Positions 14,001 through 59,330 of a stretch of DNA of 64,000 bases are shown here, piece by piece. A program made the position numbers and the translations under genes. Numbering within the stretch: the stretch's first letter is position 1; every line of letters begins with the position of its first letter. The stretch is from Mobula hypostoma. Lineage: Eukaryota. The DNA is taken from positions 101,372,001 through 101,436,000 of the forward strand of contig NC_086107.1 in NCBI RefSeq assembly GCF_963921235.1. Reading direction: 5' to 3'. The notes beneath the pieces were generated by a model. That model was not told the DNA's origin. It saw only the letters and a list, made by a program, of their open reading frames with translations, and made no database searches.

Positions 14001-14158
14001 CAGTATTTTTGACTTATTTCTATTTTCCTCTTCCTCGACCCTAACACCTTGGTTTCCTTCCCCTTGCCAACTTAGTTTAAACCCTCCCTAACAGCTATAT
14101 TAAACAATCCCGCTAGGATATTAGTACCTTTTGGGTTCAGGTGTAATCCATCTTTTTG
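11029..14158 (-). mobile_element. Young CR1 LINE, 5'-truncated within ORF1
   Basis: ORF1 C-terminus QKDGLHLNPKGTNILAGLFNIAVREGLN* (SGNH-esterase-like DxxH) at ~14075-14158; complete ORF2; CR1 3' UTR to ~11030. Confidence 0.95.
11271..13970 (-). pseudogene. CR1 ORF2 (APE endonuclease + reverse transcriptase) with one in-frame stop (11862-11864) and a late frameshift (~11340)
   Basis: Motifs LNARSIRNK, GDFN, SDH, NYRPISLTS, QGSVLGP, FADDTK, LVRPHLEYC; the 702-aa and 190-aa ORFs are in the same frame, 18 nt apart. Confidence 0.93.
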
Positions 14159-17100: not shown

Positions 17101-18019
17101 CCCTCCCTCTGGACAATGACTATATTAGGGAGGTTTAGCCAACTGGCTGAAGACCTGACACATCAGAAGGAGGCTAACTTGATTGGATGGAGGCCCTTTC
17201 AAAGATTCATCAGTGAGCAGTTCTGAAATGATAGACATTAATCCTACAGAATGTAGACTTGAGTGCAGGATGTAGGCTGATGTAATGATATGGAGACCTG
17301 CTCCATGAGATGGAGACCTACTCATAAATTGTAGACTAACCACACTGGTTGGAAAGCTGTGAAATATTGGAGAATGGTTGATAGATTGGAACTCGCCTGG
17401 AGGACAAGAACCAGTCCTGTTGGAAGAAGACCTGGTCCATGGAGAGATGACATGCTCCATTAGATGAAGTCATCTCTCAGTGGATGCAACCCCTGTCCTG
17501 TAGGATGGACATGCGCTTCATACAATGGGTGCCTGACTGAATGATGAAGATTGGTTCCACTGGTTGGAGAGCAGTGGCTTGAGTGGAGATGAGATCCACA
17601 GGATAACATCTAGGCTCAATAATAAAGACCCATCTCATTGGACAGAGACACAATGATAATGATTATGTTCTGTCCCATTGAATTGTCACTCCCTTGAAGA
17701 TGTAACCTTGTCTGTTTTGGTGGAGGTGTATTCCACCACCATAGAAACCTGTCTGATGAAATAAGGACCTGTCCCATGGGACAAAGACAAATGCCATATT
17801 ATAATGCAGGATGAAGAGTTATTCTTCAGGTAGATGATCTGTCATCTGAGGTAAGAAGAGGATATCTCCTTGAGTCAGAAAGAAGTATCACAGAATGGAG
17901 ATAATCAATCTTATGTTCATGAAACATCTCACTGCATGGATGCCAGTCCAATAAGTTGGAGATCTTTCCCACAGAATGGATATCTGACAATGGGACTGAA
18001 ATATGTTGAGAGGGACTGT

Positions 18020-18160
18020 ACTGGGCAGGTGGTAGAGCTGCAGCAACATAGGGGTTCAATCCTAAACTCGGGTGCTGAATGTGTAGAGTTTACTTGTTCA
18101 CCAGTGTCCACGTGGGTTTCCTCTGGTGCTGCACTTTCCTTGCACATCCCAAACACTGAC
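18020..18160 (+). mobile_element. V-SINE fragment inserted in the 20-bp array
   Basis: GGGTTCAATCC B-box and CGTGGGTTTCCTCTGGTGCT core. Confidence 0.7.
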
Positions 18161-19443
18161 GCGTTATCTGTACCATTGGATGGAGACCTATTCCTCAGAC
18201 AGAAACTTGGAGCTGCCCATCGGATGGCGAGCTTCCAGATGAAAGAGACCTGTAAAACATCTTTGCCATGGGATAGTGACAATCCCTATGGATAAAGGTA
18301 TGTCCAGAATATTATCCTTCAGGATGGAGATCAGACATGTGGAATGGAGATTGGTCCATTGAATAATGAACTAGCCATGGAATCTGTCTTGGAGGGAGAC
18401 TTATTCCAGAGAATGGAGGACAATTCCGCATGATGGAATGCTACAACACATATGCTGCAACATGTAGACCCTGATCATTGGATGGGGGGACCTGTTGATA
18501 GATTGAGTCATTTCTCATCATAAAATGGATAAATCACACAAAAAAAATATCTGTCCCACTTGAAGGACTCATCTCTCAGACGGATACCTGTCAATATGGA
18601 CATGGAACAATCTCACACAAAGCTGATCAAACCCTTTGGAAGGAAGCTTGCCTCACTGATGGGCTTGTCTCTGATTAATAAATCCTAATAATGGAAACCT
18701 GTTCCATTTAATGGAGATTTACCCCATTAAATACAGAGCTGTTCCATTAGTTGGTGATCTCCTGCATAGAAATCTCCTGCATAGAATGGAGGCTTCTCTG
18801 TGTGGAATAAAGTTGTGTCTCAGGGGAAAGAGATTTAGGATACAGACCTGTTGTATGATCTGGCGGAGCTTCTGTTGGACAAAACCCCATCCCACAGACG
18901 TTACACAGGAGACTCCATGGGCATCATTGGGTGGAGATCCCTGCCTCTGATTGAACATCTCTCCATATAATGGAGACCTGTTCCATTCAATTAATATTAA
19001 TCCACAGGTCTGAGATGATAACAGCCCCAGCCCATGGGTTAGGATCTGCCTGTAGAATGTAGAACAATTCCTGAGGATGAAGAACTCTCCACAGGATGAA
19101 AATTAGATGTATAGGATCACATGAAGTGCCTTTGTGAGAGAGAACTTACTATGAATGGAGATCCATAGATTGGAGAATTGCCTTACAAGATGAAGATATC
19201 TATGTGAAGGAGGGCTGCTTCATTGATGGATCTCTGTGAGATAGGGAAGGCACCAATAGCAGAGGATAAAGTCCTATCTACCCTTTCAGATGAAGATCTG
19301 TCTGCTAAGATACAGCAAAACACCATTGGAAAGAGATGTCCCATGGAATGAAGACTTGTTTGTTTGGAAGATGACCTAAGTGCTGAATAGTAACTCATAG
19401 GACGGAGAACTGTGGTCTTGCACTGTGACCAGTCCCCCTACAC

Positions 19444-19523
19444 CAGGGGTTCCCAAACTGGGGTCTACAGACACCTCAGTTAATGGTAGGGGCCCATGGC
19501 ATAAAAAAAGTTGGGAACCCCTG
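19444..19523. mobile_element. hAT-type MITE (same family as 2786-2865)
   Basis: TIRs CAGGGGTTCCCAA / TTGGGAACCCCTG; TSD not preserved. Confidence 0.8.
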
Positions 19524-19804
19524 TATTAGGTGGACAGCTCTCTATAGCGTTGAGGTGAACTGCGCAACGGAGGATAGTATGGTGTGTAGATGCAGAGGAT
19601 GGAACACAATTGGTAGTGGAGAAGGAAGATGATCCAAAGTGTGCAGACCTGTATGTATGAGGAATCCTGATCCACAGCAGTTGGTACTATCCTTTAGGAA
19701 TGTAACAGCTTAATGTCATCCTTCCTATAGCAGGCTGAACAAAACTGAACACCAAATTTGACTTCACCAATGTTTTGGACACTTCTTAGTGTGGCACCTG
19801 TTTC

Positions 19805-22116
19805 CTTTTTTGTAATTTATTTTTTATTGAAGTTCATCATCAAACAAAACTTTCCATAAGATGTATTTCAGATACTGTACATATATATCATATAGTCATA
19901 TTTGTCACAAATCTCCACATAATATTTATCTGAGGTATACACATAGAAAAGAGAGGAAAGAAAGATCAATCGAAAGAAGAAAACTATGTACAAAGTAGGG
20001 AGTGATCTTTTTTTTTTACAACATATTCATTGACATGTGAGAATAAAATCAGGCCTATGAGGTTTTATGTAATTAACCATCTTTCCCATATGAATCAAAT
20101 TGTTCGAACTTATGATTAGCAGATGCTGTTATCTTCTCCATTTTGTAAATGTCCATTGTAATTTCCATCCATACATTTAAAGTTGGGCTCTCCTGTGATA
20201 ACTATTTCCTGGTAAGGGTTTTCTTTACCAGCCACCAGCAGTATATTCATTAAATATTTATCTCTTTTCAACCATTCTTGAGGTATATACCCAAAATATA
20301 TGGTCTTATTTTCTAAGGGTATTTCACATTTAAAGATGTCTTGTAGGGCATTGTGTATCCCATTCCAATAGTCTTTGATAACGGGGCATTCCCAGAAAAT
20401 ATGATAATGGTTTGTATTTTGATTTCCATAATTTCTCCAGCAAACAGGGAAGTTACTATCACAATGGGATTTCTGAGAGGGTGTAATCAAATATCTTACC
20501 AAGTTTTTCCACCCGAACTCCCTCCATTTCTGTGAACTGGTACACTTCCATTGATACCTCCATATTATTGTCCATTCTTCCTCAGAGATCATTATCCCTC
20601 CTTCCTTATCCCATTTTGTTTTAATGTATGAAGTCGAATGTGTTTTAAGATTTAACAAACCCTTATACATGCTTGAAATTATTCTACTACCATTGTCTGA
20701 ATTATATGCTTTTCTAAATAGCTCTATCAAACATGTACTTGCCTTGGTTACATTTTTAACCATCCTATTAACATACTGTCACATCTGTAAATATCGATAA
20801 AAGTCTTGTTTTTCTAGTAAGTGTTTCTCTTTGAGCATTTCAAAACTGAACAGTGTTCCTTCTTTCATTATATTGCAAGTAGGTGTTATTCCTTTAGCTG
20901 TCCAGTCCTTAAATCTAGCATCCAGTTTATTCAGCGTAAAATCCAAGTCATATGCACACCATTTAAGAATTGCAATGTCTCTCTCTAGTTTATATTCTTT
21001 TATAATAGTTTTCCATATTTTAAGAAGCCATTTCACCCATGGGTTATCAATAGTATTTATGTAATTTTGTAGGTTGTTATCAGCCAAAATTGCCTGTATG
21101 GGGATGGAAAGTATCCCCTCCTCAATGTTTTGCCATTGAGGGCCATATGATAGGTTGCACCTGTATATCACATTCTCAACTGTGCTGCAAAATAGTAATC
21201 TGTAAGAGAAGGTAGGCCCCATCCCCCCTTTTCCTTTGCTAATTGCAAAGTTTTGAGATGAATTCTAGGCCTTTTACCTTGCCATATATATCTTGATAGC
21301 ATCTTGTTCCATTCATTGAATTGATTTTGGTTAATCTCTATTGGTAGGGTCTGAAAGAGCTATAGTAGTCTGGGCGGTATATTCATTTTAATAGATTGAA
21401 TCCTTGAACTAAGATAGAAAAGGAATTAGGTTCCGTCTTGTTATATCTTCTTTAATTTTTTTATATATAGGCTGATAATTGCATTCTGATAATTTTGCTA
21501 AATCTTTTGGTGTAATGATGCCCAAATATTTGACAGACTCTGTTTGCCATGCCCAAGGATATCTACCTTCAATTTCTCATGGTGGGCTACAGTTATATGA
21601 AAGTAGTTGGGTTTTATCTATGTTGATCTTGTATCCTGATAATTGGCCATATTGTTCAAAGGATTGCATCAAATTAGGTAAAGAGTATGTTGGTTGCCCT
21701 AGACAGATCAAAATGTCATCTGCGTAACAGGCCAATTTATGTTCTGTCCCTTTAATAGTAATTCCCCTGATATCTTCATTTTGTCTGATGTGTTGAGCTA
21801 ATGGTTCCAGATATAATGCGAAGAGTAGCAGTGACCATACACAACCCTTTCTCATGCCCCTTTCTAGGATAAAACTATTAGATAAATATCCATTGATTTA
21901 AATCCTAGCAGTAGGATTGTCATATAGTGCCTGTATAGTTCTAATAATTGTGTCATGTAGACCAAATCTATGTAAAATTCTGTAAAGAAAATTACAATTA
22001 ACCAAATCAAATGCCTTTTCAGTGTCCACGCTTATCACTACTGCTTAAATTTCACTTTTTATATGATCCATGATGTGAAGTGTCCTTCGCATATTGTCTT
22101 GTGTTTGGTGTTGTTG
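19805..22116 (-). mobile_element. 5'-truncated L1-clade LINE with a 16-bp TSD
   Basis: RT motif [22 protein letters not shown]-terminal CWRN..HIFWECP; A-rich tail at 19805; TSD GTGTGGCACC(T/G)GTTTC at 19789-19804 and 22117-22132. Confidence 0.9.
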
Positions 22117-22236
22117 GTGTGGCACCGGTTTCATAGAATGGAGGTGTGTTCTGAGTCTAAAGATCTGATGTGCAGGAAGCAGACCTCTTTCAATAAGATG
22201 GATATCTGTCCAATAGGATGGAGACCTTAATCATAT

Positions 22237-22520
22237 TGGGGCACTACGGTAGCGTAACAATTAGCTCTGGGCATCAGAGTTTAGAGTTCAACTCCAGCAT
22301 CCTCTGTACATTCTCCATGCATGGGTTTCCTCCGGGTGCTCTGGTTTCCTCCCACAGTCCAAAGGTGTACAGGTAGGTTAATTGGTCATTGTAAATTGTC
22401 CCGTGATTAGGTTCGGGTTTAATTGGAGTTTTCGGGGGTTGCTGGAACGGCGCAGCTTGAAGGGCTGGAAAGGCCGGCTCCACACTTTATTTCTAATTAA
22501 AAAATATAAATCAATAAAAT
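22237..22520 (+). mobile_element. V-SINE inserted in the 20-bp array
   Basis: tRNA-like head, V core and A-rich tail. Confidence 0.8.
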
Positions 22521-24924
22521 ATGATAGTGGCCTGTTCATTGGATGGAGGTGACTCACAGGGCAACCTATCACATTGGACAGAGGCCTGTCCCAAAAAATG
22601 GATGAAGATCTCTCCTTTTGAATGGAATTATATCCATGATGAACACTCATCCAGGGATATGATGAAAATAGGAAAGTGTCTCATAAAATGGAAACCAGTC
22701 CCATAGATTATATGACTAACTTTGAGAGAGAGAGAGAGCTCTCCTACAGGTTAAGGATAGAACCTTTGGAAAGGGACATCTTATTCGATAGAGATCTCTC
22801 ATGGTGGTTTGAGATTTGTTCCTATGATGAAGACCTGTTCCATACAATGTAGATCAGTTTCTTTGTATGTAGGGCAACTAACGTTCCATAGGATGGAAAC
22901 GTGTCCCCATGGAGTGGTAAAGTATTCTTCTGGATAATAACCTCTCATGGAGATCAATCCCATTGGATGCAAAACTATCCAGATGTCAGCATTCCTTTCC
23001 AGGGGTGGTGATCTATTCATAGGATGGAGACCTCACACGAGATGGGGATTTTCCCAAACGTTGGAGACCAATTTATAGGATGGAGAATCATCTGATGCAG
23101 GGAAGCATAGAGTCATCCACAGGATGGTGAAGTTTTCAAAGGATCCAGATCCACTCTGTGATTTCAGTCATGTAGGATAGACTCTTGTATCATTAGATGG
23201 AGACAAATTCAATGGCATTGGGGGCTCTTGAAGATATGAGGAACTATTCATTGGATGATGATGGAAATCTATCCATAAGGTCATTGGAAAATGCCCCACA
23301 AGAGGGACACCTGTTCCATGGGATGAGAACCTCTGCTGTAGGAATGAAGATGGCTGATGTGAAGACCTTTTGCATTGGATAGACAGCCCTGACCAAAATG
23401 CAGCCATTGAGAACTGTCCTAGGATACAAGATATCCTTTTGCATGAAGACATATCTCATGGGGGAAAAGGAAACTCTCTTTAAGTAGATAACTCTCCTTT
23501 AGTCTTAATAGTGGAAATCTGCTTCATTGCATTGGTACGAACTGGACCACAAGATGATTGTTTCCTGCCTTCTGAATTGTGATTTGTCCATCAGAAATAA
23601 TCCATACCCAAAGGGTGAGTATCTATTTGTGGGACAGTGCCTTGCCTCAGACGTTGTAGGCATTTCCCTTTCGAAGATGATCAGTGTCAGAGAACGGATA
23701 TACAGAGATCTGTTCATTGGATTAAGACCTGCCCATTGAATCAAAGGTTGACCCATTAGATGGAGATCAGTCTCAGGATGAAGACCTTTCCCATTATCTG
23801 GAGAATTTTTCAGCTGGTAACAACTTCTCCCTAGGATGATAATCTGTTCATAGGTGGAGATCAATATCAAAGGTTGAAGCCCCTTCCAAGGAATGGAAAA
23901 TTATCCCATAGGGTGGAGACATTCCCATCAAAGGAGAACCAAGCAGGGAGGATATGCAAGTGTGTACAGGAATGAAGACCAGACCCACAAGACCTTTATA
24001 TAAATGGGAGTCATGCCTCATATGATGGAGACCAGTATATCAGATAAAGACATTCCAAAGGATGAGGAACTGTCTAATTGGATGATAGGATGGGAGTTTG
24101 TCCCATTGGATGGAGCTCCCTCCCATGGGATAGCATTTTGTCATATTGAATAAACATTTAGAAGAAGACCTGTTCCATTTTCTAGCATCTCACCCTCTGG
24201 CTGGAATTATTCATTTATACTGCCGTTGCTTCCATTCACCATGGAATGGAAACTCATGCATCTAATGCAGATCCATTGCCTGGATGGAGAACTGTTTGTA
24301 AGGCCGAGAGCTGGGTCAAAGGACGTAATGTCTTTCATTGGATATTGACCTGTATCAGAGGGTGGTGTTCTCCCCCACTGGTGGGAGTTCTGTCCACATA
24401 TTGGAGATTTATTCTGTCCATGAAATTAAGACATCCACCACTAGATGGCATGTGTTCTGTCACTGTTCTAGTAGTGGGGACATCTCCCCTGGTTTCCCAT
24501 GGGATTTTTCTCTGCCGTCCGTGGGAAGGGACCAGTCCCTTTGGAGAGAGATTTTTTAACAAGTTGGAGAGCAATTCATAGGATGGAGAAATGACCAAAG
24601 ATTCAAAACCAGACTTATAGGCAATATGGGGAGTTTTCATGGGAGGAAGGCCTGCCCCATTGAATAAAGATCTGTTCTATCGGATAGAGATGTTCTTCGG
24701 GTGGTGACCCATCTCATATGGGGAAACATATTTATTTCGAAAGGGACATGCTTTGGTTAGAGAAATTTATTCTCATCTCTTATCCAGTCTTACTTAGAGA
24801 ATCAAATAAAATGCAGATGCTGCAAATCTGAAACACAAACAGAAAACACTGGCAAAACTCAGCAAGTCAGGCAGCAGCTGATGAGAGAGAATGAGTATTG
24901 AGCCTGAGGGAGTGCTTTTAATCA

Positions 24925-35804: not shown

Positions 35805-36297
35805 ATTAGAGAAAGGTAGGCAGTAAAAGGGGCTGAGGGAAAGGGATGGAGCAGGTGATGGGTGAATCCAATTCAGGACAGTGACAGACAGATGGAGGAG
35901 GGAAGAGTGGGATTAGTGACGGAGGAAGGTAGGTGATAGGTGGAGCTAACAAAGGGCTGCAGATGATGAATCTGAAAGGAAAGGAAGGTGGGTATTGAAA
36001 CGAAGTAAGGGAGATGGGGAGGACAATGGGGGCAGTGGGAGGAGTCTATGGGTAATGGGCAGGTGGAGTTGGTGGAAAATTGGAAAGGAATAAGGCAATG
36101 TGGCCTGGGGTGACTGTATGAAAAACTGGGCAGATTTGGAGATCACCTCTTGATGCTGTCCGGGCCTCCTCCGTCTTTCAGTCCGGATGAAGGGTCTCGA
36201 TCTGTAACGTCGACTGTCTCTCTCTGCCAGATCGTCCAGCAGTTTGTGCTTTTTCGTTTAGCTCCAGGTTCCCGCATCTGCAGTTTCTTGTGTCTCC
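35805..36297. mobile_element. Old Penelope 3' fragments, head-to-head (minus ~35805-36150, plus ~36150-36297)
   Basis: Purine-rich PLE region, then CAGTCCGGATGAAGGGTCTCGATCTGTAACGTCGACTG and the GCATCTGCAG tail. Confidence 0.6.
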
Positions 36298-37770
36298 GCG
36301 TGGAAAATGAGGCGCCGGTAAGTTTGGCAGAAAGTTTAGTAGACCCGGTGGTATATGGAGCGGTAACGGAGCCCCGGTGACTGACCCGGTGGGTTGATAT
36401 GGAGCGGTGACGGAGCCCCGGTGACTGACCCGGTGGGTTGATATGGAGCGGTAACGGAGCCCCGGTGACTGACCCGGTGGGTTGATATGGAGCGGTAACG
36501 GAGCCCCGGTGACTGACCCGGTGGGTTGATATGGAGCGGTAACGGAGCCCCGGTGACTGACCCGGTGGGTTGATATGGAGCGGTAACGGAGCCCCGGTGA
36601 CTGACCCGGTGGGTTGATATGGAGCGGTGACGGATTCTCAGCCAGTCGAGAGTAACTAGAGAAAGCAGACGGGAAACCGAATGTCGACGTTTCAGGCCAG
36701 AACCCTTCATCTGAAATGAGAGAGTAGACGGGAGATCTCAAAGAAGTGTGGATCGGACTCGGTGTTCTAAAACGAGAGGAGGCAGGGCGCCATCCGTGAC
36801 GAGACAGGGAAACATCCCGGAGGGTTCAGGAGCCCGGGACCGCGACCTGATTGAGTGCATAAACAGTGTGGGAGCGGAGCCGGTGAATTTATCACAAGGG
36901 TCGGAAGACAAGAAAGGGAACGGCCACCCGGTGAGGCATAGTACATCACCTACAGGCCCTTCGGCCCTGCACGTCTATCCTGACCACTGTATCCATCTAT
37001 CACACGCCTTGGCGATTGAAGTATTGGTGAAACCCGGGGGGTTCACTACCAACCTCGACAGATTCAAACTTCTGTGGGATCACCCCTCACCCTCCTGCGC
37101 TCCGTGAAAAACAAACTCAGCTTGCACACCTCTCTCGCCCAGTCACCTTGTTAGTCTTCCTTTCCTTGGACGGGGTACAGGGAAGATTATGTTTATAAGG
37201 AAGGTCGCGAGTTTACAAAATGGGTGGGAATGGAGACCCAGTGACTAATGAAGTCCCAGTGAGATATCAAGCCGCGTCCTTTGTTTTCGGTGAAGTTGCT
37301 AGGACAGGGGAACGAGCGCCCGCTGAGTGCATGGGGAGGGTGGGACAGAGGTCCCGGTAAGGAACGTGTATAATGAATACAACAAGTCTATACGAATTGT
37401 GTGACCGGGACCCTGTGAGTTTATTTTTAAAAAGAGCATAGAAACGGGGTGACAGAGGGTCAGTTAGGAGTGTGGGACCGAGACGAATTTGCAAGAAGAG
37501 TGGATGTTCGTAATGTAATTTGTCAGGTAATGATGCAGGGGGACAGGTCCCGGGGAGATGAGGGTGCGTGGGAACGGGACCCGGCTGAATTTCTGACTGA
37601 CATTGGCGCGGGGTCCCGCTGAGCCTGTAACATCAGGGGACGGGTCCCGGTGAGTTTATTAGGGGCATGGGGACGGTCCGAGGGAGCGCGGGAAATCTGT
37701 GGTAAAGCAGGCGCCGAATCATCAGAATTTCTCAGACAGCCGGATAACCGATTATCGGATTTCACTTCAG
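36150..37770. promoter_or_regulatory. CpG-island-like region
   Basis: By eye, much denser in CG dinucleotides than the flanks, including within old TE sequence; not computed. Confidence 0.5.
36342..36634. repeat. Near-perfect 44-bp VNTR, ~6.6 copies
   Basis: Unit GATATGGAGCGGTAACGGAGCCCCGGTGACTGACCCGGTGGGTT; GGAGCGG at 36357, 36401, 36445, 36489, 36533, 36577 and 36621. Confidence 0.97.
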
Positions 37771-37990
37771 CTACTGTCTGTCCGTAGAGAAAAAAAAAGG
37801 CCCCTTTTTGCCAGTGTTCAGGTAGTCCACCCTGATCTCCATTAGATTTCGTGCTTTTTAAAAATTCTAATGTTGAAAACCTTTCACAAAATGAGACTGT
37901 TCTTAAAAAAAGGAAATGGTGGGAAAAGTGGAGGAAAACGAAGAGTAAGAGACCATTAAAACAAAGAGAAAGACAGTTATAATGTTGCAT

Positions 37991-38141
37991 ACAACAGGAA
38001 TTCTGCAGATGCTGGAAATTCAAGCAACACACATCAAAGTTGCTGGTGAACGCAGCAGGCCAGGCAGCATCTCTAGGAAGAGGCGCAGTCGACGTTTCAG
38101 GCCGAGACGAAGGGTTCACCAGCAACTTTGATGTGTGTTGC
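37991..38141. mobile_element. Penelope 3'-end fold-back insertion with 13-bp TSD
   Basis: Inverted arms GCAACACACATCAAAGTTGCTGGTGAAC / GTTCACCAGCAACTTTGATGTGTGTTGC; TSD TATAATGTTGCAT at 37978-37990 and 38142-38154. Confidence 0.9.
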
Positions 38142-38194
38142 TATAATGTTGCATTCTTTGTTGTGTTTATGTAAGGAGCGTAAGTCACACTCCC

Positions 38195-39619: not shown

Positions 39620-39915
39620 AGCGAGTAGCGTAATGTTTTCACAGTGCCAACTGTTAAGATCAGGGTTCAAATTCCTTCACTGTCTGAAAGAGGTTTGTAC
39701 GTTCTCTTCGTGACAGTGTGGGATTCCTCCAGATGCTGTGATTTCCTGCCACACTCCAAAGATGGACAGATTAGGATTAGTAATCTTGGGCCTGCTGTGT
39801 TGGTGCTGCAAGTGTAGCAATACTTGCGGGCTGCCCAGCACCATCCCCACTGATTTGACTTGACACAAATGATGTGTTTCGCTGTGTGTTTCAATGTAAT
39901 TGTGACAAATAAAGC
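39620..39915 (+). mobile_element. V-SINE subfamily with a different tail
   Basis: GGGTTCAAATTCC, V core, tail ..GTGACAAATAAAG; similar to 57458-57985. Confidence 0.7.
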
Positions 39916-39969
39916 CAATCGTTATCTTCATCTTGTTGTATATCTAACCCTAGAGTGTCTGTCCAGAGT

Positions 39970-41293
39970 AAGACTGGTGGCATTGACCTCCCACATCATG
40001 GAGACCCTGGAGAGACTTGTTCTGGAGCTGCTGCGGCCTATGGTCAGACCACACTTAGATCCCCTCCAGTTCGCCTACCAGCCTCGACTAGGAGTTGAGG
40101 ATGCCATCGTCTACCTGCTGAACCATGTCTACGCCCACCTGGACAAGCCAGCGAGCACTGTGAGGGTCATGTTTTTTGACTTCTCCAGTGCGTTCAACAC
40201 CATCTGCCCTGCTCTGCTGGGGGAGAAGCTGACAGCGATGCAGGTGGATGCTTTCCTGGTGTCATGGATTCTTGATTACCTGACTGGCAGACCACAGTAC
40301 GTGTGCTTGCAACACTGTGTGTCCGACAGAGTGATCAGCAGCACTGGGGCTCCACAGGGGACTGTCTTGTCTCCCTTTCTCTTCACCATTTACACCTCGG
40401 ACTTCAACTACTGCACAGAGTCTTGTCATCTTCAGAAGTTTTCTGATGACTCTGCCATAGTTGGATGCATCAGCAAGGGAGATGAGGCTGAGTACAGGGC
40501 TACGGTAGGAAACTTTATCACATGGTGTGAGCAGAATTATCTGCAGCTTAATGTGAAAAAGACTAAGGAGCTGGTGGTAGACCTGAGGAGAGCTAAGGTA
40601 CCGGTGACCCCTGTTTCCATCCAGGGGGTCAGTGTGGACATGGTGGAGGATTACAAATACCTGGGGATACAAATTGACAATAAACTGGATTGGTCAAAGA
40701 ACACTGAGGCTGTCTACAAGAAGGGTCAGAGCCGTCTCTATTTCCTGAGGAGACTGAGGTCCTTCAACAACTGCCGGACGATGCTGAGGATGTTCTACGA
40801 GTCTGTGGAGGCCAGTGCTACCATGTTTGCTGTTGTGTGCTGGGGCAGCAGGCTGAGGGTAGCAGACACCAACAGAATCAACAAACTCATTCGTAAGGCC
40901 AGTGATGTTGTGGGGATGGAACTGGACTCTCTGACGGTGGTGTCTGAAAAGAGGATGCTGTCCAAGTTGCATGCCATCTTGGTCAATGTCTCCCATCCAC
41001 TACATAATGTACCGGTTGGGCACAGGAGTACATTCAGCCAGAGACTCATTCCACCGAGATGCAGCACAGAGCGTCATAGGAAGTCATTCCTGCCTGTGGC
41101 CATCAAAGTTTACAACTCCTCCCTTGGAGGGTCAGACACCCTGAGCCAATAGGCTGGTCCTGGACTTATTTCCTGGCATAAATTACATATTACTATTTAA
41201 CAATTTATGTTTTTATTACTATTTATTATTTATGGTGCAACTGTAATGAAAACCAATTTCCCCCGGGATCAATAAAGTATGACTATGACTATG
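39970..41293 (+). mobile_element. Young 5'-truncated Rex1/Babar LINE with an open RT frame to the stop at 41152 and an (ATGACT)n tail
   Basis: VALTSHIMETLERLV, DPLQFAYQ, FFDFSSAFNTI, GAPQGTVLSPFLF, KFSDDSA; the N-terminal part of the 430-aa ORF comes from flanking SINE sequence. Confidence 0.92.
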
Positions 41294-47948: not shown

Positions 47949-49115
47949 GAGGAAATCTGCAGATGATTGGCAAAGGGGATATGAGAGGATCATGGGACAG
48001 GAGGCCTAGGGAGAAAGAAAAGGGGGGGGGAAAGCCCAGAGGATGGGCAAGGGGTATAGTGAGAGGGACAGAGGGAGAAAAAGGAGAGAGCGAGAAAGAA
48101 TGTGTGTATAAAAATAAATAACGGATGGAGTACGAGGGGGAGGTGGGGCATTAGCGGAAGTTGGAGAAGTCGATGTTCATGCCATCAGGTTGGAGGCTAC
48201 CCAGACGGAATATAAGGTGTTGTTCCTCCAACCTGAGTGTGGCTTCATCTTTACAGTAGAGGACATGTCAGAATGGGAATGGGATGTGGAATTAAAATGT
48301 GTGGCCACTGGGAGATGCTGCTTTCTCTGGCGGACAGAGCGTAGATGTTCAGCAAAACGATCTCCCAGTCTGCATCGGGTCTCACCAATATATAGAAGGC
48401 CACATCAGGAGCACCGGACGCAGTATATCACCCCAGCCGACTCACAGGTGAAGTGTCGCCTCACCTGGGAGGACTGTCTGGGGCCCTGAATGGTGGTAAG
48501 GGAGGAAGTGTAAGGGCATGTGTAGCACTTGTTCTGGTTACAAGGATGTGCCAGGAGGGAGATCAGTGGGGAGGGATGGGGGGGGATGAATGGACAAGGG
48601 AGTCGCGTAGGGAGTGATCTCTGCGGAAAGCGGGGGGGGGAGGGAAAGATGTGCTTAGTGGTGGGATCCCGTTGGAGGTGGCGGAAGTTACGAAGAATTA
48701 TATGTTGGATCCGGAGGCTAGTGGGGTGGTAGGTGAGGACCAGGGGAACCCTATTCCTAGTGGGGTGGCGGGAGGATGGAGTGAGAGCAGATGTACGTGA
48801 AATGGGGGAGATGCGTTTAAGAGCAGAGTTGATAGTGGAGGAAGGGAAGCCCCTTTCTTTAAAAAAGGAGGACATCTCCCTCGTCCTGGAATGAAAAGCC
48901 TCATCCTGAGAGCAGATGCTGTGGGGACGGAGGAATTGCGAGAAGGGGATGGCGTTTTTGCAAGAGACAGAGTGAGAAGAGGAATAGTCCAGATAGCTGT
49001 GAGAGTCAGTAGGCTTATAGTAGACATCAGTGGATAAGCTGTCTCCAGAGACAGAGACAGAAAGATCTAGAAAGGGGAGGGAGGTGTCGAAAATGAACCA
49101 GGTAAATTTGAGGGC
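47949..49115 (-). mobile_element. Young Penelope-like element fragment (RT C-terminus, linker, GIY-YIG)
   Basis: FFKERGFPSSTI..VPLVLTYHP..HFTCESAGVIYCVRCS; its 3' region matches 50420-50664. Confidence 0.9.
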
Positions 49116-49601
49116 AATTCAATATAACGTCAGACCTCTCAGCAATTGACAAGAGATAAAGAAACAGTAACGTCGATAGATCACAGAGATGGAAATGGGC
49201 AATCTCAGTTTCCCCAATATTAACTGGGATTGCCTGAGTGTGAAAGGTTTAATGAGATGGATTTTTAAAGGTTCTTCCAGGAGAGAAATTTGAGCCAGTA
49301 TTTTGATTGATTTACTGGAAGAATGGCAGTACAAGGCCTTAACCCTGATTAGTAGTGCAACTCCCCCCCCCCCACCACTCTTTTACCTCCCTCTCTATCT
49401 TTTCTAAAACATCAAAACCCTGGGACGTTGAGCACCCATGTTTGTCCCTTCCTCAACCAGGTCTCTGGAATGGCCACAACATCATAGATCCATGAACTGG
49501 TACCACTTGAGTAACAGTGGGGGAGCATTTCAGAGACAACGCGTAAGCTCAGAGATTCTTACGGAAAAGGACAACATGAAGCAGGTACTAAGGTGCTGAA
49601 C

Positions 49602-49701
49602 AACACAGGTCAAAGTTGCTGGTGAACGCAGCAGGCCAGGCAGGATCTCTAGGAAGAGGTGCAGTCGACGTTTCAGGCTGAGACCCTTCGTCAGGACTTC
49701 G
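49602..49701 (-). mobile_element. 100-bp Penelope-derived insert (hammerhead motif + tail) with 13-bp TSD
   Basis: TSD TAAGGTGCTGAAC at 49589-49601 and 49702-49714. Confidence 0.9.
49663..49698 (-). ncRNA. Minimal type I hammerhead ribozyme motif
   Basis: AGUC CUGACGA A GGGU CUCA GCCU GAAA CGUC GACU. Confidence 0.7.
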
Positions 49702-50276
49702 TAAGGTGCTGAACTGGGAAATGGGATGGGTGTGGGTGGGTATGGGTTCTAATATCATAAGACAGGACCAACAACAGTGGACAGGAAGCAACCATTTGCA
49801 TGTAGGTCTACATCCGATGAGTGGGAGTTATTCAAAAATGAAATAACAAGAGATCAGGTCCAACAAGTTCCTTAAGTGTGAAAGGCAGGATCAGATTAAA
49901 GATTAGATTAGCTTTATTTGTCGCTTGCCCTGGAGATCAAAACATCGCATTGTCTTGTGTCAACGAACAGCACCGTCCATGCATTGTGCTGGGAGCAACC
50001 TGGAAGTGTCACCATGTTTCCAGTGCCCGCAGAGCAACCCCACAACTTACTGACCCTAACCGTAAAGTGGGGGGGGGGGGTGTCAGCTGCTTTAAGTTCC
50101 TCAGTGTTATCTGTCCTGGGCCCAGCACGTTTGTGCAATTACGAAGAAAACACGACTGTGCCTCTACCTCCTTAGAAGTTTGCGAAGAATCGACACGGCA
50201 TCTAAAACTTTGGGCAACACACATCAAAGTTGCTGGTGAACGCAGCAGGCCAGGCAGCATCTCTAGGAAGAGGTGC

Positions 50277-50312
50277 AGTGGACGTTTCAGGCCAAGACCC
50301 TTCGTCAGGACT
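50277..50312 (-). ncRNA. Minimal hammerhead motif (one stem I mismatch)
   Basis: AGUC CUGACGA A GGGU CUUG GCCU GAAA CGUC CACU. Confidence 0.6.
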
Positions 50313-51011
50313 AACTGAAGGAAGAGTTAGTAAGAGATTTGAAAGTGGGAGGGTGAGGGGGAGATCCAAAATGATAGGAGAAGACAGGAGGGGGAGGGAT
50401 GGAGCCAAGAGCTGGACAGGTGATAGGCAAAAGGGATATGAGAGAATCATGGGACAGGAGGCCCAGGGAGAAGGAAAAGGGAGAGGGGAGGAGAAAACCC
50501 AGAGGATGGGCAAGGGGTATAGTCAGAGGGACAGAGGGAGAAAAAGGAGAGAGAGAGAGAAAGAATGTGTGTATATAAATAAATAACGAATAGGGTACAA
50601 GGGGGAGGTGGGGCATTAGCAGAAGTTAGAGGAGTCAATGTTCATGCCATCAAGTTGGAGGCTAACTTCCACTAACTTCTCTAACTTCTGGAGACTTCTC
50701 TAACTTCCGCTAATCCCCCACCTCCCCCTCGTACCCCATCCGTTATTTATTTATGTACACACATTCTTTTTCTCTCTCTCCTTTTTCTCCCTCTGCCCCT
50801 CTGACTATACCCCTTGCCCATCCTCTGGGTTTTCCCCCCTCCCCCTTTTCCTTCTCCCTGGGCCTCCTGTCCCATGATTCTCTCATATCCCTTTTGCCAA
50901 TCACCTGTCCAGTTCTTGGCTCCATCCCTCCCACTCCTGTCTTCTCCTATCATTTCCGATCTCCCCCTCCCCCTCCCACTTCCAAATCTCTCACTAACTC
51001 TTCCTTCAGTT

Positions 51012-51047
51012 AGTCCTGACGAAGGGTCTCGGCCCGAAATGTCGACT
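51012..51047 (+). ncRNA. Minimal hammerhead motif (stem III C>U variant)
   Basis: AGUC CUGACGA A GGGU CUCG GCCC GAAA UGUC GACU. Confidence 0.65.
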
Positions 51048-52134
51048 ACCTCTTCCTAGAGATGCTGCCTGGCCTGCTGCGTTCACCAGCAACTTTGACA
51101 TGTGTTGCTTGAATTTCCAGCATCTGCAGAATACCTCGTGTTTACGTCTAAAACTTTGACAAGCTTCTATAAATGTGTAGTGGACAGTATATTGACTGGT
51201 TGCATCAAGGCCTGGTATGGAAACACTAATGCCCTTGAAAAGGAGTGTATATGGCCCAGTCCATCATGGATAAAGCCCTCCCACCATGGAGCACAGCTAC
51301 ACAGAGCGTTGCTGCAGGAAAGCAGCATCCATCATCAGGGACCCCCACCACCCAAGACGTGCTCTCTCCTCGCTACTGCCACCGGGAAGAAGGTACGGGA
51401 GCCTCAGGACCCACCACCACCAGGGTTCAGGAACAGTTATTACCCCCCAACCATCAGGCACTTGAACCATTGGGGATAACTTCACTCAACTTCACTCACC
51501 CCATCATTGAACTGTTCCCACAATCTATGAACTCACTTTCAAGGACTCTTTATCTCACGTTCATGATATTTACTCCTTCTTTATTATTATTATTTCTTTG
51601 TATTTTGTACATTGGTTGTTAGTCCGTGCTGTTGGATGCGGTCTTTCATCGATTCTATTAAGGTTCTAGATTTACTGAGTATGCCCGCAAGAACATGAAT
51701 CTCAGGGTTGTATATGTTGACACATGTGTACTTTGATAATAAATTTACTTTGAACTTTGAAACTCGAGCGCTCCGAGGAAACCCAGGCAGTCACGGGGAG
51801 AACGTACAAATTCCTTACAGACAGAGGTAGGAATTGATCGCTGGAACTGTAAATCGATGCGCTAGCTACTGTGGTATCCTGCTGCCTTGTCCAGGGGACT
51901 TGGTATGTCAAGGGATGTTAAGCGTTAGGAAAAAAATGTAAATAATGCTAGCTAAAGACAATCGAAAAGAGGGAAGGCCCTGCAGAAATATAGAAAGTGT
52001 AGAAGTAGACAAAAATGTAATTAGGTGAAGAAGGAGCTGGCATAATTGAGTAAAATTCAAAGTCTTCTACAAGAACATTCAGGACAGGACCGTAACTAGC
52101 AGAGCCCATCAGACACCAAAATAGCAACTGTTGT

Positions 52135-53204: not shown

Positions 53205-53730
53205 TCTAGAGCTAAAAAGGAAACTCAGCATCTGTGGATGGAATTGGACAGTTGGCACTTCTCACTGAGACCCTACATTGGAACTGAAAGAGTGGAGGTG
53301 AGGGGGAGGGCTGGGACAAGAGCTGGCAAGTAATGGGTACATCTAGGAGAGGAGGGTTGAAGGGCAGATGGGGAGGGAAGGGAGAAGATAGAGGCTGGGA
53401 GGTGATTGCTGGAGACAACAAGGTGCTGTAGAATCTGATAAGAAAGGAAGTTGAAAAGGAACCAGACAAGGAGTGATGCTTGGCAGATGGGAATAGTTGG
53501 GGGGGGGGTGCGGAAGGGGATGGGTGATCCAGTGGTGGGCAGGTGGGGAGGTGAAAGAAACTGTCTGATAGGAGGAGGTTTGGAAAGAAGGGTATGTGTA
53601 AGAGGGTCTGAGCAGATCAGGAGAGAGAAAAGGGGTGAAGAGGAGCAGGCTGCATTAAACTGGAGAACTTAATGTCCACAGCGTCAGGCTGCAGACTGCC
53701 CAGAGGGAATATGAGATGCTGACCCTCTAG
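53205..53730 (-). mobile_element. Old Penelope 3' region
   Basis: Purine-rich tract and GCAGACTGCCCAGAGGGAATATGAGATGCTG, similar to 48190-48230. Confidence 0.6.
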
Positions 53731-53732
53731 TC

Positions 53733-53811
53733 CAGGGGTTCCCAAACTGGGGTCCACGGACCCCTTGCTTATGGTATTGGTCCATGGCATGAAAAAGATT
53801 GGGAACCCCTG
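53733..53811. mobile_element. hAT-type MITE (third copy)
   Basis: TIRs CAGGGGTTCCCAA / TTGGGAACCCCTG; flanks CTCTAGTC / ACCTAGCC. Confidence 0.8.
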
Positions 53812-56800
53812 ACCTAGCCTCACCCTATCATTGGAGAAGGTTTGGAATAGTTTGAGAGCCTGTGACCAGTGTGTTTCACGGGGAACCTTCACCGTTGGCT
53901 TTACACAGTACATTAACTGGGTGAGGATGGAGGAGAAAGGTCACAGATGACATAATAATTGGTGAAATTGTTGATAGCAGAGAGACTAGTCTACAGGGAA
54001 AGAATTGGTTGATAAAATGGACGGAGAAATGGCTGGGGTTTAATCCAGAAAAATGATGGAAGTACATTTCCAGGGAATTGATTGGTACTGACAAACAGAG
54101 GAATCTTGGTCTGCATCTCCAAGATGGTTAAGAAGACATCCTGGATGCTGGATTGTCTGGGGCATAAAATATAAGATCAGGGAGGTTATGGTACGAGTTT
54201 ATAAAACAGTCAGTAGGCCACAGCTGGAGTGCTGTGCGCAGTTCTGATTGCCACGTCGCGGGGAGGACACGGTTGCGTTGAAGAGGATGCAGCAGAGACT
54301 CATCAGGACGCTGCCTGGGGTGGAGTTATGAGGAAAACGTCAGTGCCAGCCTGCTCTTTAAGGGTGGAAGGTCAGGTGCTTTCTCAGGAACCCTGGATGC
54401 CTCATAGACTGGTGTGGCCGTGACCACAGGGAAGTGTACAGAGTTGCGCACATTGTAAAGACCAGCCTCCACTCCATGGGCTCTGTCTACACTTCCCACT
54501 GCCTCAGCGACAGCCACCAGCATCACCAAAGCCCCCATCCACCCTAGACGTTCCCTCTTCTACCCTCTTCCACTGGGCAGAAGATACAAATGCCACAAGG
54601 ACAGGCCCAAGGATAGTTTCTACCCTGCTCTTAACGGACCTCTTGTACAATAAGACAGACTCCTAAACTTACAATCTATCTCATCATTGCCTTTTACGTC
54701 TTATTGTCTGCGTGCACTGGACTTTCTCTCACTGTAACACTACACCCTGTATTTGGTTATCGTTTCGCCGTACCGCCTCGATGTACTGATGTTATTTGCA
54801 TGGATAGCGTGCTCAGTGATGATGATAAAGCAGTTTACTGATTTACCAGCTCAAGGCTCAGGAATTAAGCTCAGGGACACGCATAAATCCAGCAACAAGG
54901 AGCAGGGATTTTTGTAAGCGTTGCGGAGCTGAGATCTTTGTGAGGATTGCGGAGCTGGAGGAGGTTGCAGACTGTGTGAAGGGATCATAGATGGAGATGA
55001 GAATTTTAATATTTTGTAACCAATGTCAGGCCAGTGCCCTCCAGCACGATGCTGGTGAACTGAATATGTATTCACTTTAAAAGACACAGGGTCAGGCACT
55101 AATATTACTTCAGCATATAAAGGTTATTGTCAATTATGTATTAGTCGTCATCCTGACCAGCTTTTCATCAAATCCTTGTGCCAAATACAGCTGACAATCT
55201 AATGCATCAACTCTCACAGAAAAAAAACTCATGGGATTTTGTAAGCAGTGAATTAATGTCAAGTTGACAAAGGCCAGGTTTATTTTTATCCATCAAAGAA
55301 ACAGTGAACAGTGAGCTAACTGGTCAATTCGCCCTGGCTTTGTACGTGTGAGGAGTGATTCCATTCTGTCCAATGTTACACAGAAGTTTTCCATTTAATT
55401 CTCCCTGCCAGATTGGCAATACTTTGGTACACCAGTAGATGTCAGGATTGAGCCCAAATAAGACTCTCGGAACCCTTGGTTACCTTGTCCAGACCTTATC
55501 ACCTACTGCAGAATCATCTTTAGTGATCTTGTGATGTATAGTAGCCTCCAACCTGATGGTACAAATACCGATTTCTCCGTCCGGTAAAAAAAATCCCCCC
55601 CCCCATTCCCCACTCTTCTCCCCTACCTATCATTTCCCCCTGCGTCCCCTCTTCCATCCCTCTCTCCGATAGTCCGCTCTCCTGTTCTATCAGATTCTTT
55701 CTTCTCAGACTTGGCTTCACCTATCACCTTCCAGCTAGCCTCCTTCCCCTCCCCCGCCACTTTATTCTGACATCTTCCCCCTTTTCAAAATCAAATCAAA
55801 TCAAATCAAATTTAATCGTCTTTCAAACCAAGGTGCAAAAACATACACGTGCATTCAAAATAACAAGAAAGGAAACAAAGAACATTGCCATGTAAGTGAA
55901 CAAATTTTTAGACCAAGTTCCTCAACAAACAAGTCCTGCAAATGGCAGTCCGCAGTCCAGCTTGTAATTCCACAGATCCACCACTGGAGGGCAGCACAGA
56001 TGGGAGAGGCCACTACCCCCCTCAACCGAGCCTGGATGCATCGCAAGTCTGAGGACGAAGGCCTAGTCTTAGCTACAACCGAGGTGACACTGCTGCCTCG
56101 CCACCAAACAAGGGAAGCAGGCCTGCGGCGATCAGTGTCCAACATGGACATCAGGCCTGTGGCAATCAGGGCCCAACATGGTCTTGCGACCGCAAAAGAA
56201 ATATCCAAGACGGTCACTCACATTCCACTGCAGGCCAACTCGAAGGCACCAACTCCAGTGCCTCCAAGTAGCACACAGCAGCACAGTCTCCACCCAGGTC
56301 AACTCTTCTGAACGTACAGGCAGCGGCGGGAATTGAACCAGGGTCGCCTGCACCATAAAGCGTTGTGCTAACCACTACGCTACCGTGCCGCCCCAAGATT
56401 CTCCCCAAAGCCCATTGTCTTGTTCAGACCTTGTTCCTTAGTGCCTTGGTGTCCCCCTGTGTTTAGCCATATCCCTATGGGGCCCCATTGGACATTTTAT
56501 TCCGTTAAAGCTAGTGTATGAATGGAAGTTGCCGTTACTTGAGCAGGTGAGGGATCAGGGCTGGAGGGGTGGCAAGCAAGCCCAGTGCGTCAGCGGCCAA
56601 ATGTTTAACTTTAAGGAGAATGGGAACTTCTCTTTCTCGTCTTGCTGAAACACACAGGCCCAGGGGCACTGGGCAGGCCAAGAGAAGATGCTGAGGATGC
56701 AATCTGTGTGGTTCCCCAGACCGATCTTATTGGAGACCGAACTGAGCTCTTCCACGTTTCACGGTGGATGCCCCTTTATGAAGCCAGCACAGCAAAGGAT

Positions 56801-57611
56801 CTTGCATGGAGCTTGTGCTTGGGAACGGGATTCTCGCAATGCCCGTGCCTGTACCTTTGGCCACGGACTATAGATGGGTGGTGATATACCAGTGTCCTGA
56901 TACTCTGCACCTTCACATACTGAGACCCACTGAGGCTGTACGTTATTCTGCAGAGCAGTCCCTGTCCACAACTGCTCACACCTCCTGTGACTGCCGTTCC
57001 TACTGTTGCAGAAAAACAGCCATACCGAGAATCAGCTGCACATTGTTTTCCAGTCACTGAATCCGCCAGCACACTGAGCCTACGCCGGCTTTTGGAATTC
57101 ATCCCTTCAGGCCTGCTCCTTCCCCCACAGCTCTGATGCACTCTTTTACCCTTCAGTAGACACTGACTGACTGCTTCCTCCCGCCCTGTAGTCAGCCAGC
57201 TTCTGGTTATCACCACTGTCTGAGCAAGAGTCGTACAGCCTGCAACAAGGCCCCTTGACCCAACCGCCCCACCCCATCCAAGCTAGTCTCGTTTGCCCGT
57301 GCTTGGCTCATATCATTCTAAACCGTTCCTAGCTGCCTCCAGCAGTCTCTTAAAGGTTGTTACTGCATCTGCCTCAGCCACTTCCTCTGGCAGCTCGTTC
57401 CATGTTCTCACCACCCTCTGTGTATAAGTGGTGCCTCAGACATCCGTCCTACCCTGCACGGTAGCACCACGATTAGTGAAATCGCTGTATAGTGCTGGCA
57501 ATCACTGACTGGGCTTCGATTCCCACCACTGTCTGTTAGGAAATGGTATGCTCTCCCCGTGACTGCGCGGGTTTCCTCCGAGAGCTCCAGGTTCCTCCCA
57601 AAGTCCAAAGG

Positions 57612-57879
57612 AGGAATTCTGCAGATGCTGGAATTTCAAGCAACACACATAAAAGTTGCTGGTGAACGCAGCAGGCCAGGCAGCATCTCTAGGAAGAGGT
57701 ACAGTCGACATTTCGGGCCAAGATCATATCTCCCCCTCCCCCTCCCACTTTCAAATCTCTTACTAGCTCTTCTTTCAGTTAGTCCTGATGAAGGGTCTCG
57801 GCCCGAAACGTCGACTGTACCTCTTCCTAGAGATGCTGCTTGGCCTGCTGCGTTCACCAGCGACTTTTATGTGTGTTGC
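57612..57879. mobile_element. Head-to-head Penelope fold-back insertion with 8-bp TSD
   Basis: Arms ~57640-57724 and ~57795-57879 are reverse complements; TSD TCCAAAGG at 57604-57611 and 57880-57887. Confidence 0.9.
57781..57816 (+). ncRNA. Minimal type I hammerhead ribozyme motif, best-preserved copy
   Basis: AGUC CUGAUGA A GGGU CUCG GCCC GAAA CGUC GACU; predicted cleavage after C57812. Confidence 0.75.
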
Positions 57880-58154
57880 TCCAAAGGCTTACGGTTAGGG
57901 TTGGGATTGTGGCATGCTACATGTGACGAATCTTGTGCTTTGCCTCCTGCACAAGGTACTTTACATGTGTGACAAATAAAACTATTCCTCATCTTTTACC
58001 CAGGTTGAACTTTGCCCTCTCCCTAGTAGGGTCCTGTACCTGAGGAAACTTTACTGAACACATTTAACAAATTTCACCCCATTTAAGCTCTTAGCACTAT
58101 GACAGACCCAGTCTGTACTAATAAAGTTAACACCTCCTACTATAACAAAGTTGT

Positions 58155-59330
58155 AAACACAAGAGATTCTGTAGCTGCTGGTTTGGTCAGGCAGTGTCAA
58201 TGGAGGGGAGTAAATGGAGGGACATTTTAGGCCAGGACTCTTTACCAGGACGGGAAATGAATGGGGGAAGAAACCAGATAAGAAGGTGGAGGAGGGGGAG
58301 AGGAAGAAATTGAAGCTGAAAGGTGATTGGTGAAGCCAGGTGAGGGTGAAGATGGGTGGGTGGGGAAGGGGAGCTGAGAGGTGATTGGCGGAGAAGGTCT
58401 GAAGAAGAAGGAACCTGATAGGGCAGGACAGCGGACCATGGGGGTAGGGAAGGAGGAGGGGCACCAGAGGGAAGTGATAGACAGGTGGGGAGAAGAGATG
58501 AGGAATGATGGGAGCCAGAAGAAGCAATGGAAAAGAAGAGAAGGGGGAAGGGGAGAAATTACTGAAGGTGGAGAAATCGATGCTCGTGCCATCAGGTTAG
58601 AGGGTCCCCAGATGGAATATGACGCGTTGCTCCACCAACCTGAGAGTGGCCTCATTGTGGCAGCGCCAACGTGTTGGAATGGGAATGAGGATTGGAAATG
58701 GTTGGCCACTGGGAAATCCCCCTCCTTGCAGATGGAGCAAAGGTGCTCCACAATGCAGTCCCCGATCTTCTTTGGGTCTCCCCAAGATAGAGGAGGCCGC
58801 ATCGGGAGCACCGGATACAGTAGGTGACCCTGACAGACTCGCAGGTGAAGTGCTGCCTCACCTGGAAGGACTGTTTGGGGGCCTTGGATGGTCGCAAGGG
58901 AGGAGGTGTAGGGGCAGGTGTGGCACTTGTTCTGCCTGCAGGGAGGAGTGCCAGGAGGGAGATCAGTGGGGAGGGACGAACGGACAAGGGAGTCACGCAG
59001 AGAGCGATTCCTGCAGAAAGCAGAGAATGGGAGAGGGGAGGTAAGGATGTGTTCAGTGGTAGGATCCTGTTGAAGATGGTGGAAGCTGTGGAGAATAATG
59101 TGCTGGATGTCGAGGCTTTTGGGAAATTAGGCAAGGACGCAAGGAACTTTATCATTGTCGATGGAAATGGAGGAGATATGGGTTAGCACAGCATCAATGG
59201 AGGAGGGAGGGAAACCCTGAAGAAGGAAGACACCTCAAATGTTCTGGAAAGGAAAGCCTCACCTTCAGAACAGATGTGGGGAGACTGAGGCATGAAGCAA
59301 AGGGGAAGGCACCTTTACAAGTAACAATTG
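58155..59330 (-). mobile_element. Older Penelope-like fragment with GIY-YIG remnant
   Basis: PKQSFQVRQHFTCESVRVTYCIRCSRCGLLYLGETQR. Confidence 0.88.

Follow-up and report, generated by a model that had tools for sequence, protein, structure and literature searches.

Minimal hammerhead ribozymes in the pseudo-LTRs (pLTRs) of metazoan Penelope-like elements (PLEs) were described by Cervera and De la Pena in 2014 (PMC4209133). In the accessible portions of that paper, these motifs combine the hammerhead core with an extra base between positions 9 and 10.1, a G10.1-C11.1 pair, a palindrome at 15.2-16.2, a helix I of 3–5 bp, and a U-rich 5' flank that belongs to the consensus, and they lie mostly as solo copies or as opposite-strand pairs 100–700 bp apart. 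They did not cleave as monomers, and cleaved at low levels as dimers. Cleavage by hammerhead dimers is also credited to Lunse et al. (2017) in the available text of a review (PMC6765202).

In the excerpts of Craig et al. (2021; PMC8557442) that bear on these elements, the Neptune and Nematis PLEs have a reverse transcriptase (RT), followed by a CX2-5CxxC linker, which is absent in Penelope and Poseidon, and then a GIY-YIG endonuclease with cysteines between the motifs. PLE insertions are described there as 5'-truncated, with an inverted partner copy, an optional tail of 30–40 bp, and a target-site duplication (TSD) of variable length. In the Poseidon element PAc of Anolis, as far as the available text of Frangieh et al. 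(2024; PMC11167929) goes, the hammerhead lies in the pLTR and requires protein, no reads ended at its site, catalytic mutants had no effect on insertion in vitro, and two tail end points downstream are tied to two internal RT start sites. The animal non-LTR retrozymes are short, pLTR-derived, hammerhead-bearing units in head-to-tail arrays, and the accessible part of the preprint that describes them (bioRxiv 10.64898/2026.07.22.740005) includes one chondrichthyan genome, which was positive, and nine frog hammerhead dimers, of which one cleaved and eight did not.

The motif at 57781–57816 on the plus strand of the window (the whole 64-kb stretch of DNA analyzed, in the numbering of which all positions are given) is an ordinary example of the kind described in 2014, sharing the features listed above, and departing from the motifs printed in that source in its helix II, which at 4 bp lies at the short end; a common variant of the family also has a G-U pair at 10.1-11.1. 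The carrier resembles Neptune and Nematis in the order of its RT, linker, and cysteine-bearing GIY-YIG endonuclease, and in the truncation, inverted partners, tails, and TSDs of its insertions, although the window holds no full-length or tandem copy, and the clade is placed by the linker. The pLTR hammerhead with two tail end points downstream is shared with PAc, which lacks the linker, belongs to another clade, and has an ORF that starts inside its hammerhead, whereas the AUG at N7 is found here in one of the four main copies. An ORF beginning at this AUG was ruled out, given the ACG in the other three. Short hammerhead-bearing units derived from a pLTR also recall the retrozymes, but here the copies are truncated insertions, solo or inverted and with TSDs, and no head-to-tail tandem unit with a hammerhead is present among the 20 tandem-repeat rows of the window. 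The best explanation, at a probability of about 0.88, is that the motif is a minimal hammerhead in the pLTR of a Neptune-type PLE, and that the 57781 copy is a truncated insertion, predicted to be folded shut and likely inert.

The hammerhead motif and its copies

Read letter by letter, the motif has the layout given in the initial annotation, that is, a stem I arm AGUC, CUGAUGA, one extra A, GGGU-CUCG-GCCC (stem II), GAAA, CG, UC, and GACU, with every core letter present, and with CUGANGA, GAAA, and UH in type I order. The predicted cut site follows C57812. The heptamer CUGANGA alone occurs at chance level in the window (58 times, against 50.9 expected), while the full descriptor, with a stem I of at least 3 bp and a stem II of at least 4 bp, has three matches in the 64 kb, at 57785(+), 51016(+), and 49694(-); in 100 local dinucleotide shuffles it had 0.02 matches on average and never more than one. 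A check with covariance models, proposed in the initial annotation, returned no hammerhead: Rfam gave 11 weak, unrelated matches in the window, and none in 57740–57890. Matches to Rfam miRNA families at 38025–38140 and 50548–50780 were discarded as inverted repeats of elements. Judged by its sequence, the motif at 57781–57816 is a real minimal type I hammerhead.

An ungapped scan of the window recovered all four copies that had been named as good, with 36, 34, 33, and 32 of the 36 letters alike. Three of these retain the ACGU remnant of the palindromic helix III, which has decayed to AUGU in the copy at 51012–51047(+), 298 nt past an ORF stop (50711–50713). The unpaired base between 9 and 10.1 and the G10.1-C11.1 pair are both present in 57781 and 51012, and a G10.1-U11.1 wobble is found in 49663–49698(-), within a 100-bp mini-insertion, and in 50277–50312(-). 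This last copy does not deserve to be called good: its G1.1 has become C, which breaks stem I at the cut site; with the pair next to this site lost, the copy does not match the full descriptor.

The decayed copies listed in the initial annotation are also present, at 638–673(+), 36180–36215(+), 36682–36717(-), and 58217–58252(-), with 28, 31, 28, and 23 of the 36 letters, respectively, and a further, heavily decayed copy, missing from that list, lies at 53250–53285(-). The copies at 638 and 58217 are each of an older subfamily, and these two and the copy at 53250 all lie downstream of endonuclease remnants, the first 3' of a GIY-YIG remnant at 141–381(+), the second 3' of a PLE ORF remnant at 58567–59275(-), and the third 3' of a GIY-YIG remnant at 53638–53916(-). 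The copies at 36180 and 36682 lie face to face (36180–36717), with no linked ORF remnant, and a 44-bp tandem array (36342–36634; 6.7 copies, 97% identity) is found between them. Half-copies were recovered at 57703(-) and 38087(-), and matches of 21–22 of the 36 letters at 41895(-), 15603, 30257, and 46612 were excluded as doubtful or chance.

The four main copies differ from one another by seven changes at six columns. These differences had been said to favor the N position, loop II, and G-U pairs, with CpG decay as a possible cause of some of them. In fact, all seven fall in CpG dinucleotides, and six are CpG transitions. With 10 CpG positions in the 36-mer, all seven would fall there by chance with a probability of (10/36)^7 = 1.3e-4. 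There is no sign of selection in the differences between these copies, because all seven are at CpG sites. Within the family, 2 of the 40 variant rows listed fall in the motif, which occupies 36 of 453 positions, numbers that say little about any excess conservation of the motif over its flanks.

Carrier element and insertion structure

The 57781 copy is truncated before the ORF, the position of which is known from a sister copy at 50693–51146, 92% identical to it, where the hammerhead lies 298 nt after the stop of an ORF with an RT and a GIY-YIG endonuclease. The proposal that this is a minimal type I hammerhead with a palindromic stem III in a PLE terminal repeat was thus borne out. A broken ORF fragment at 48151–49115(-), with stops and frameshifts, encodes the C-terminal part of the RT, a CX4CxxC linker, and the GIY-YIG endonuclease, and its UTR resembles, at 89–92%, the arms that precede the hammerheads of 50277 and 51012. 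This ORF-bearing copy jumps from mid-UTR to a long tail at 47950–47990 (junction near 47965), its own hammerhead being deleted.

The fragment at 48408–49118 has 14 related proteins among 827 candidates, the best of them 82% (Mobula) and 77% (Hypanus) identical, which makes a ray the likely host, and seven of the eight relatives scanned match RVT_1 and/or GIY-YIG, several of them below the curated cut-off. None of five ORF fragments of the window matched Pfam, and their identity rests on these homologues. Searching with the related proteins by tblastn revealed five PLE regions in the window. The window fragment has the CX4CxxC linker and two cysteines between GIY and YIG, features shared by 9 of the 14 relatives. 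The linker therefore points to a carrier of the Neptune/Nematis type, rather than Penelope/Poseidon, a placement by this motif that spans both Neptune and Nematis; the window does not contain the RT core. Poseidon, the first guess at the clade, was ruled out by the linker. Two public ray gene models, annotated as chitinase domain-containing protein 1 isoform X1 (P0002) and divergent protein kinase domain 1C isoform X2 (P0004), consist largely of the PLE ORF, which represents either exonization or an annotation artefact.

The 57781 hammerhead lies within a 268-bp insertion (57612–57879) bounded by 8-bp target duplications (57604–57611(+) and 57880–57887), recognized as a TSD by position only, given that the 8-mer occurs six times in the window. 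The direct piece, at 57728–57879(+), is a 5'-truncated pLTR fragment with the last ~53 nt of a pyrimidine-rich UTR, the hammerhead, and a short tail of 67 nt past the cut site. Its inverted partner, at 57612–57727(-), begins in loop II, without the CUGANGA, has a long tail of 95 nt past the cut site, and shares about 110 nt of complementarity with the direct piece. The insertion entered a dispersed repeat of family D3/D10, which we take to be SINE-like.

Three other young insertions are bounded by duplications of 12–13 bp. At 50213–51146, a 934-bp inverted pair of truncated copies, each beginning in the last codons of the endonuclease, is flanked by a 12-bp TSD (50201–50212 and 51147–51158), with the short tail on the left and the long one on the right; short tandem duplications of the final ORF codons occupy its center (50662–50713). 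The mini-insertion of 100 bp at 49602–49701(-), with a 13-bp TSD (49589–49601 and 49702–49714), consists of three foreign letters, element sequence from stem I exactly, and a short tail. At 37991–38141, an inverted pair of tails that holds only the 3' half of the hammerhead is bounded by another 13-bp TSD (37978–37990 and 38142–38154), and a 9-nt flipped bit of the hammerhead core lies between the arms at its junction (38087–38141). Overall, TSDs of 8–13 bp flank all four young hammerhead-bearing insertions, every young copy is 5'-truncated, in three of the four, a long-tailed and a short-tailed piece form an inverted pair, and the tails fall into two classes, of 65–68 and 95–103 nt past the cut site.

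By analogy with the published systems, the hammerhead would cleave as a dimer: two hammerheads on a tandem transcript of the parent element would pair via the ACGU palindrome and swap their stem I arms, so that each copy would be cut, after GUC, by the core of the other. Published relatives suggest that this cleavage is probably slow and aided by the protein of the element. The RT would begin copying at either of two points, some 67 and some 100 nt downstream of the cut site, and frequent early stops would then yield the brief direct and inverted terminal fragments, flanked by target duplications, that are observed in the window; this route to them is presumed. Once inserted, the copies would decay at CpG sites.

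The copies of the family are 89–96% alike, and their target duplications are intact, which suggests that the family is fairly young. Contigs matching 50693–51145 number 6073, 6542, 18, and 26,900 in four sequencing runs, none of them recorded as RNA, reaching thousands in three of them. The original description of a recently active ribozyme-bearing PLE family is supported in so far as the family is abundant and fairly young; its present activity is conjectural. The loose contig ends at 51047 are explained by a deletion of 2 nt that the reference copy alone carries.

The window also contains other repeats. Many diverged copies of a unit of roughly 20–42 nt (families D8 and D9) occupy 15360–23930, possibly an old satellite, and a LINE remnant with an RVT_1 match at 21580–21897 interrupts this region. 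Long open frames at 11271–14087(-) (741+196 aa) and 39854–41152(+) (432 aa) are presumably LINE endonuclease/RT proteins.

Conservation across related families

Metagenome contigs were scanned with alignment A1, and the best 80 of 474 relatives were kept. The end of the ORF was located in 52 of these, 13 of which were dropped for having less than 450 nt behind it, leaving 39 evaluable loci. At 11 of the 39 loci, in two families, the strict motif occurs on the sense strand no more than 450 nt past the ORF, and at one of the 39 it occurs on the opposite strand. Relaxing the pattern, in an uncontrolled search, brings in 13 more loci, and the motif is absent from the remaining 15 even then. At six loci (L041, L063, L066, L071, L072, and L075), the relaxed pattern recovered a hammerhead-like variant about 385–415 nt behind the ORF, with a stem II of 3 bp, no extra base, and a different stem III region.

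For the analysis of covariation, 15 of 28 same-geometry matches (excluding 10 duplicates, L065, L075, and L070-) were aligned with the four window copies, giving 19 rows. The stems are paired in 87.9% of the cells, against 72.8% in shuffled alignments, with two-sided changes in 26 cells; none of 500 shuffles reached the observed pairing, and slid controls gave 12–45%. As 11 of the 19 rows are one family, and the core is demanded by the search pattern, the evidence amounts to about five families, across which helices I and II covary in the aligned sequences. Covariation of the stems across families, which had been named beforehand as a test of the ribozyme, was thus found. The extra A, G10.1, C11.1, and the palindrome CGU are invariant in all seven family representatives, and, apart from U16.1, none of these letters was fixed by the patterns.

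The commonest related motif (loci L007/L024) matches, in every letter, the one printed for Acropora digitifera in Fig. S3 of PMC4209133, an element listed as Neptune in Table S1 of that paper, and no cartilaginous fish is found among the 56 hammerhead motifs of that figure. The exact degenerate motif pattern has no match in either viral or metagenome contigs. The G-U pair at 10.1-11.1 accounts for 68% of the summed contig depth in run X1, 58% in X2, 17% in X19, and 8% in X9, with depth being no copy number, and no core position appears among the 40 of 121 variant rows listed, including G12, the CpG partner of the 10.1-11.1 change. This hints that the parent elements tolerated a weaker 10.1-11.1 pair but kept the core.

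Predicted folding, alternative readings, and significance

In read-through RNA, the hammerheads at 57781, 51012, and 50277 are predicted to be fully paired to their inverted partners, with a probability of 0.000 for stems I and II, and 49663 is the sole copy predicted to keep both stems in context (P 0.6–0.8). With 30 nt of native flank, and without the inverted arm, stem I is predicted at about zero in all three copies that have this flank, and the fragment 57765–57835, proposed as an assay construct, is predicted to misfold, its core pairing with the upstream flank. For an RNA that starts at 57777, the stems are predicted at a probability of about 0.9. For the 57781 copy, the predicted energy is -14.7 kcal/mol for the active dimer and -28.5 for the most stable inactive one, in a model that omits the tertiary contacts of the core. 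The 57781 copy is therefore likely inactive, a call that reflects equilibrium folding only.

The initial annotation had also supposed that host transcripts crossing these copies could be cut. In its widest form, this reading has the dispersed copies cutting host transcripts in cis, through distant pairs, or in trans, through abundant family RNA, and so shaping the host transcriptome. The core is intact at 57781, 49663 keeps its predicted stems, the family is present on thousands of contigs, and there are same-strand neighbors at 50277/49663 (614 nt apart, minus) and 51012/57781 (6.8 kb apart, plus). However, host-transcript cutting in this window is unlikely, because predicted folding encloses three of the four copies in long duplexes of inverted repeats, and the upstream flank is also predicted to disrupt the fold. 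The same-strand partners are themselves damaged: the nearest to 49663 is the broken 50277, with its mispaired stem I, and 51012 has a decayed palindrome. The low activity of published dimers (PMC4209133), the failure of eight of the nine frog dimers (bioRxiv 10.64898/2026.07.22.740005), and, for the anole element, the need for protein and the absence of read ends at the cut site (PMC11167929), in the parts of these sources that are available, also argue against it, and no host exon was found by Pfam among the longest 150 of 459 unmasked frames, which gave one RT only, although short exons could escape such a search, and the copies may yet lie in a host intron. We regard the reading as very improbable.

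The least improbable of the alternatives is that the structure serves the pLTR in protein binding or splicing, with the shape of a hammerhead whose cleavage is now irrelevant, the family having been amplified without a working ribozyme. The weakened G10.1-U11.1 pair, which predominates in X1 and X2 and is found in two of the four full window copies, is consistent with this, as are the anole mutants that insert normally in vitro (PMC11167929) and the Naiads, which thrive without hammerheads, according to the accessible text of PMC8557442. It is opposed by the lack of core positions, G12 included, among the variant rows listed, and by the invariance of the extra A, G10.1, and the CGU palindrome in the family representatives, and we consider it unlikely, though less so than the other alternatives. 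A chance resemblance in a repeat, multiplied by its copy number, might be suspected from the chance frequency of CUGANGA, the silence of Rfam, and the fact that the window copies are not independent. The same geometry nevertheless recurs downstream of the ORF in distant relatives, where the stems differ but are compensated, and the motif matches the consensus printed in PMC4209133; this cross-family covariation, together with the position, rules chance out for practical purposes.

There is also a splice-site-like sequence at the edge of the hammerhead. At 57761–57782(+), a branch-point-like heptamer and a pyrimidine tract lead up to stem I, which CAG and TAG adjoin on its 5' side, and pairing between this flank and the core is predicted. 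It is conceivable, though improbable, that the ribozyme is gated by splicing, with a pLTR intron ending at the edge of stem I and its last bases pairing with, and locking, the catalytic core, which splicing, or an RNA start at this point, would unlock. Such gating would also account for mini-insertions that begin exactly at stem I, of which 49663 is one case. The three young copies that retain their native flank have the branch-point-like heptamer and a YAG, the core-flank pairing is predicted at 0.8 in two of these three, and three older copies have a Y-tract and a CAG, the AG of which opens stem I. In the D. virilis Penelope, an intron ends at helix I, and, of 55 published motifs, 26 have a YAG in the flank as printed, by an uncontrolled count made by eye (both from the accessible material of PMC4209133). 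Against this, the U-rich flank already belongs to the consensus of that paper, and the AG is required for stem I anyway. In the related families, YAG is found in one of seven, and a lock above 0.5 in none of the seven, and no GT..AG joint was present among the 15 of 25 joints listed. Loose contig ends before 51012 occur on 48, 54, 3, and 322 contigs (24 of 937 rows listed), and were rejected as evidence of splicing, since their pyrimidine-rich consensus resembles the flank of the older 638 copy, which indicates other subfamilies and possible truncations. The literature searched yielded no publication on this family in rays, although the supplements of PMC4209133 and of the retrozyme preprint may name a chondrichthyan family, and none that joins Neptune, hammerhead, shark, and splice site. 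If splicing did gate the ribozyme, this would link two unexplained traits of the PLEs, their retained pLTR intron and their weak hammerhead.

Under the preferred reading of a hammerhead in the pLTR of a Neptune-type PLE, the 57781 copy alone matters little. The very many near-identical copies in rays, by contrast, represent material for genome-wide tests of the cleavage of PLE hammerheads in vivo.
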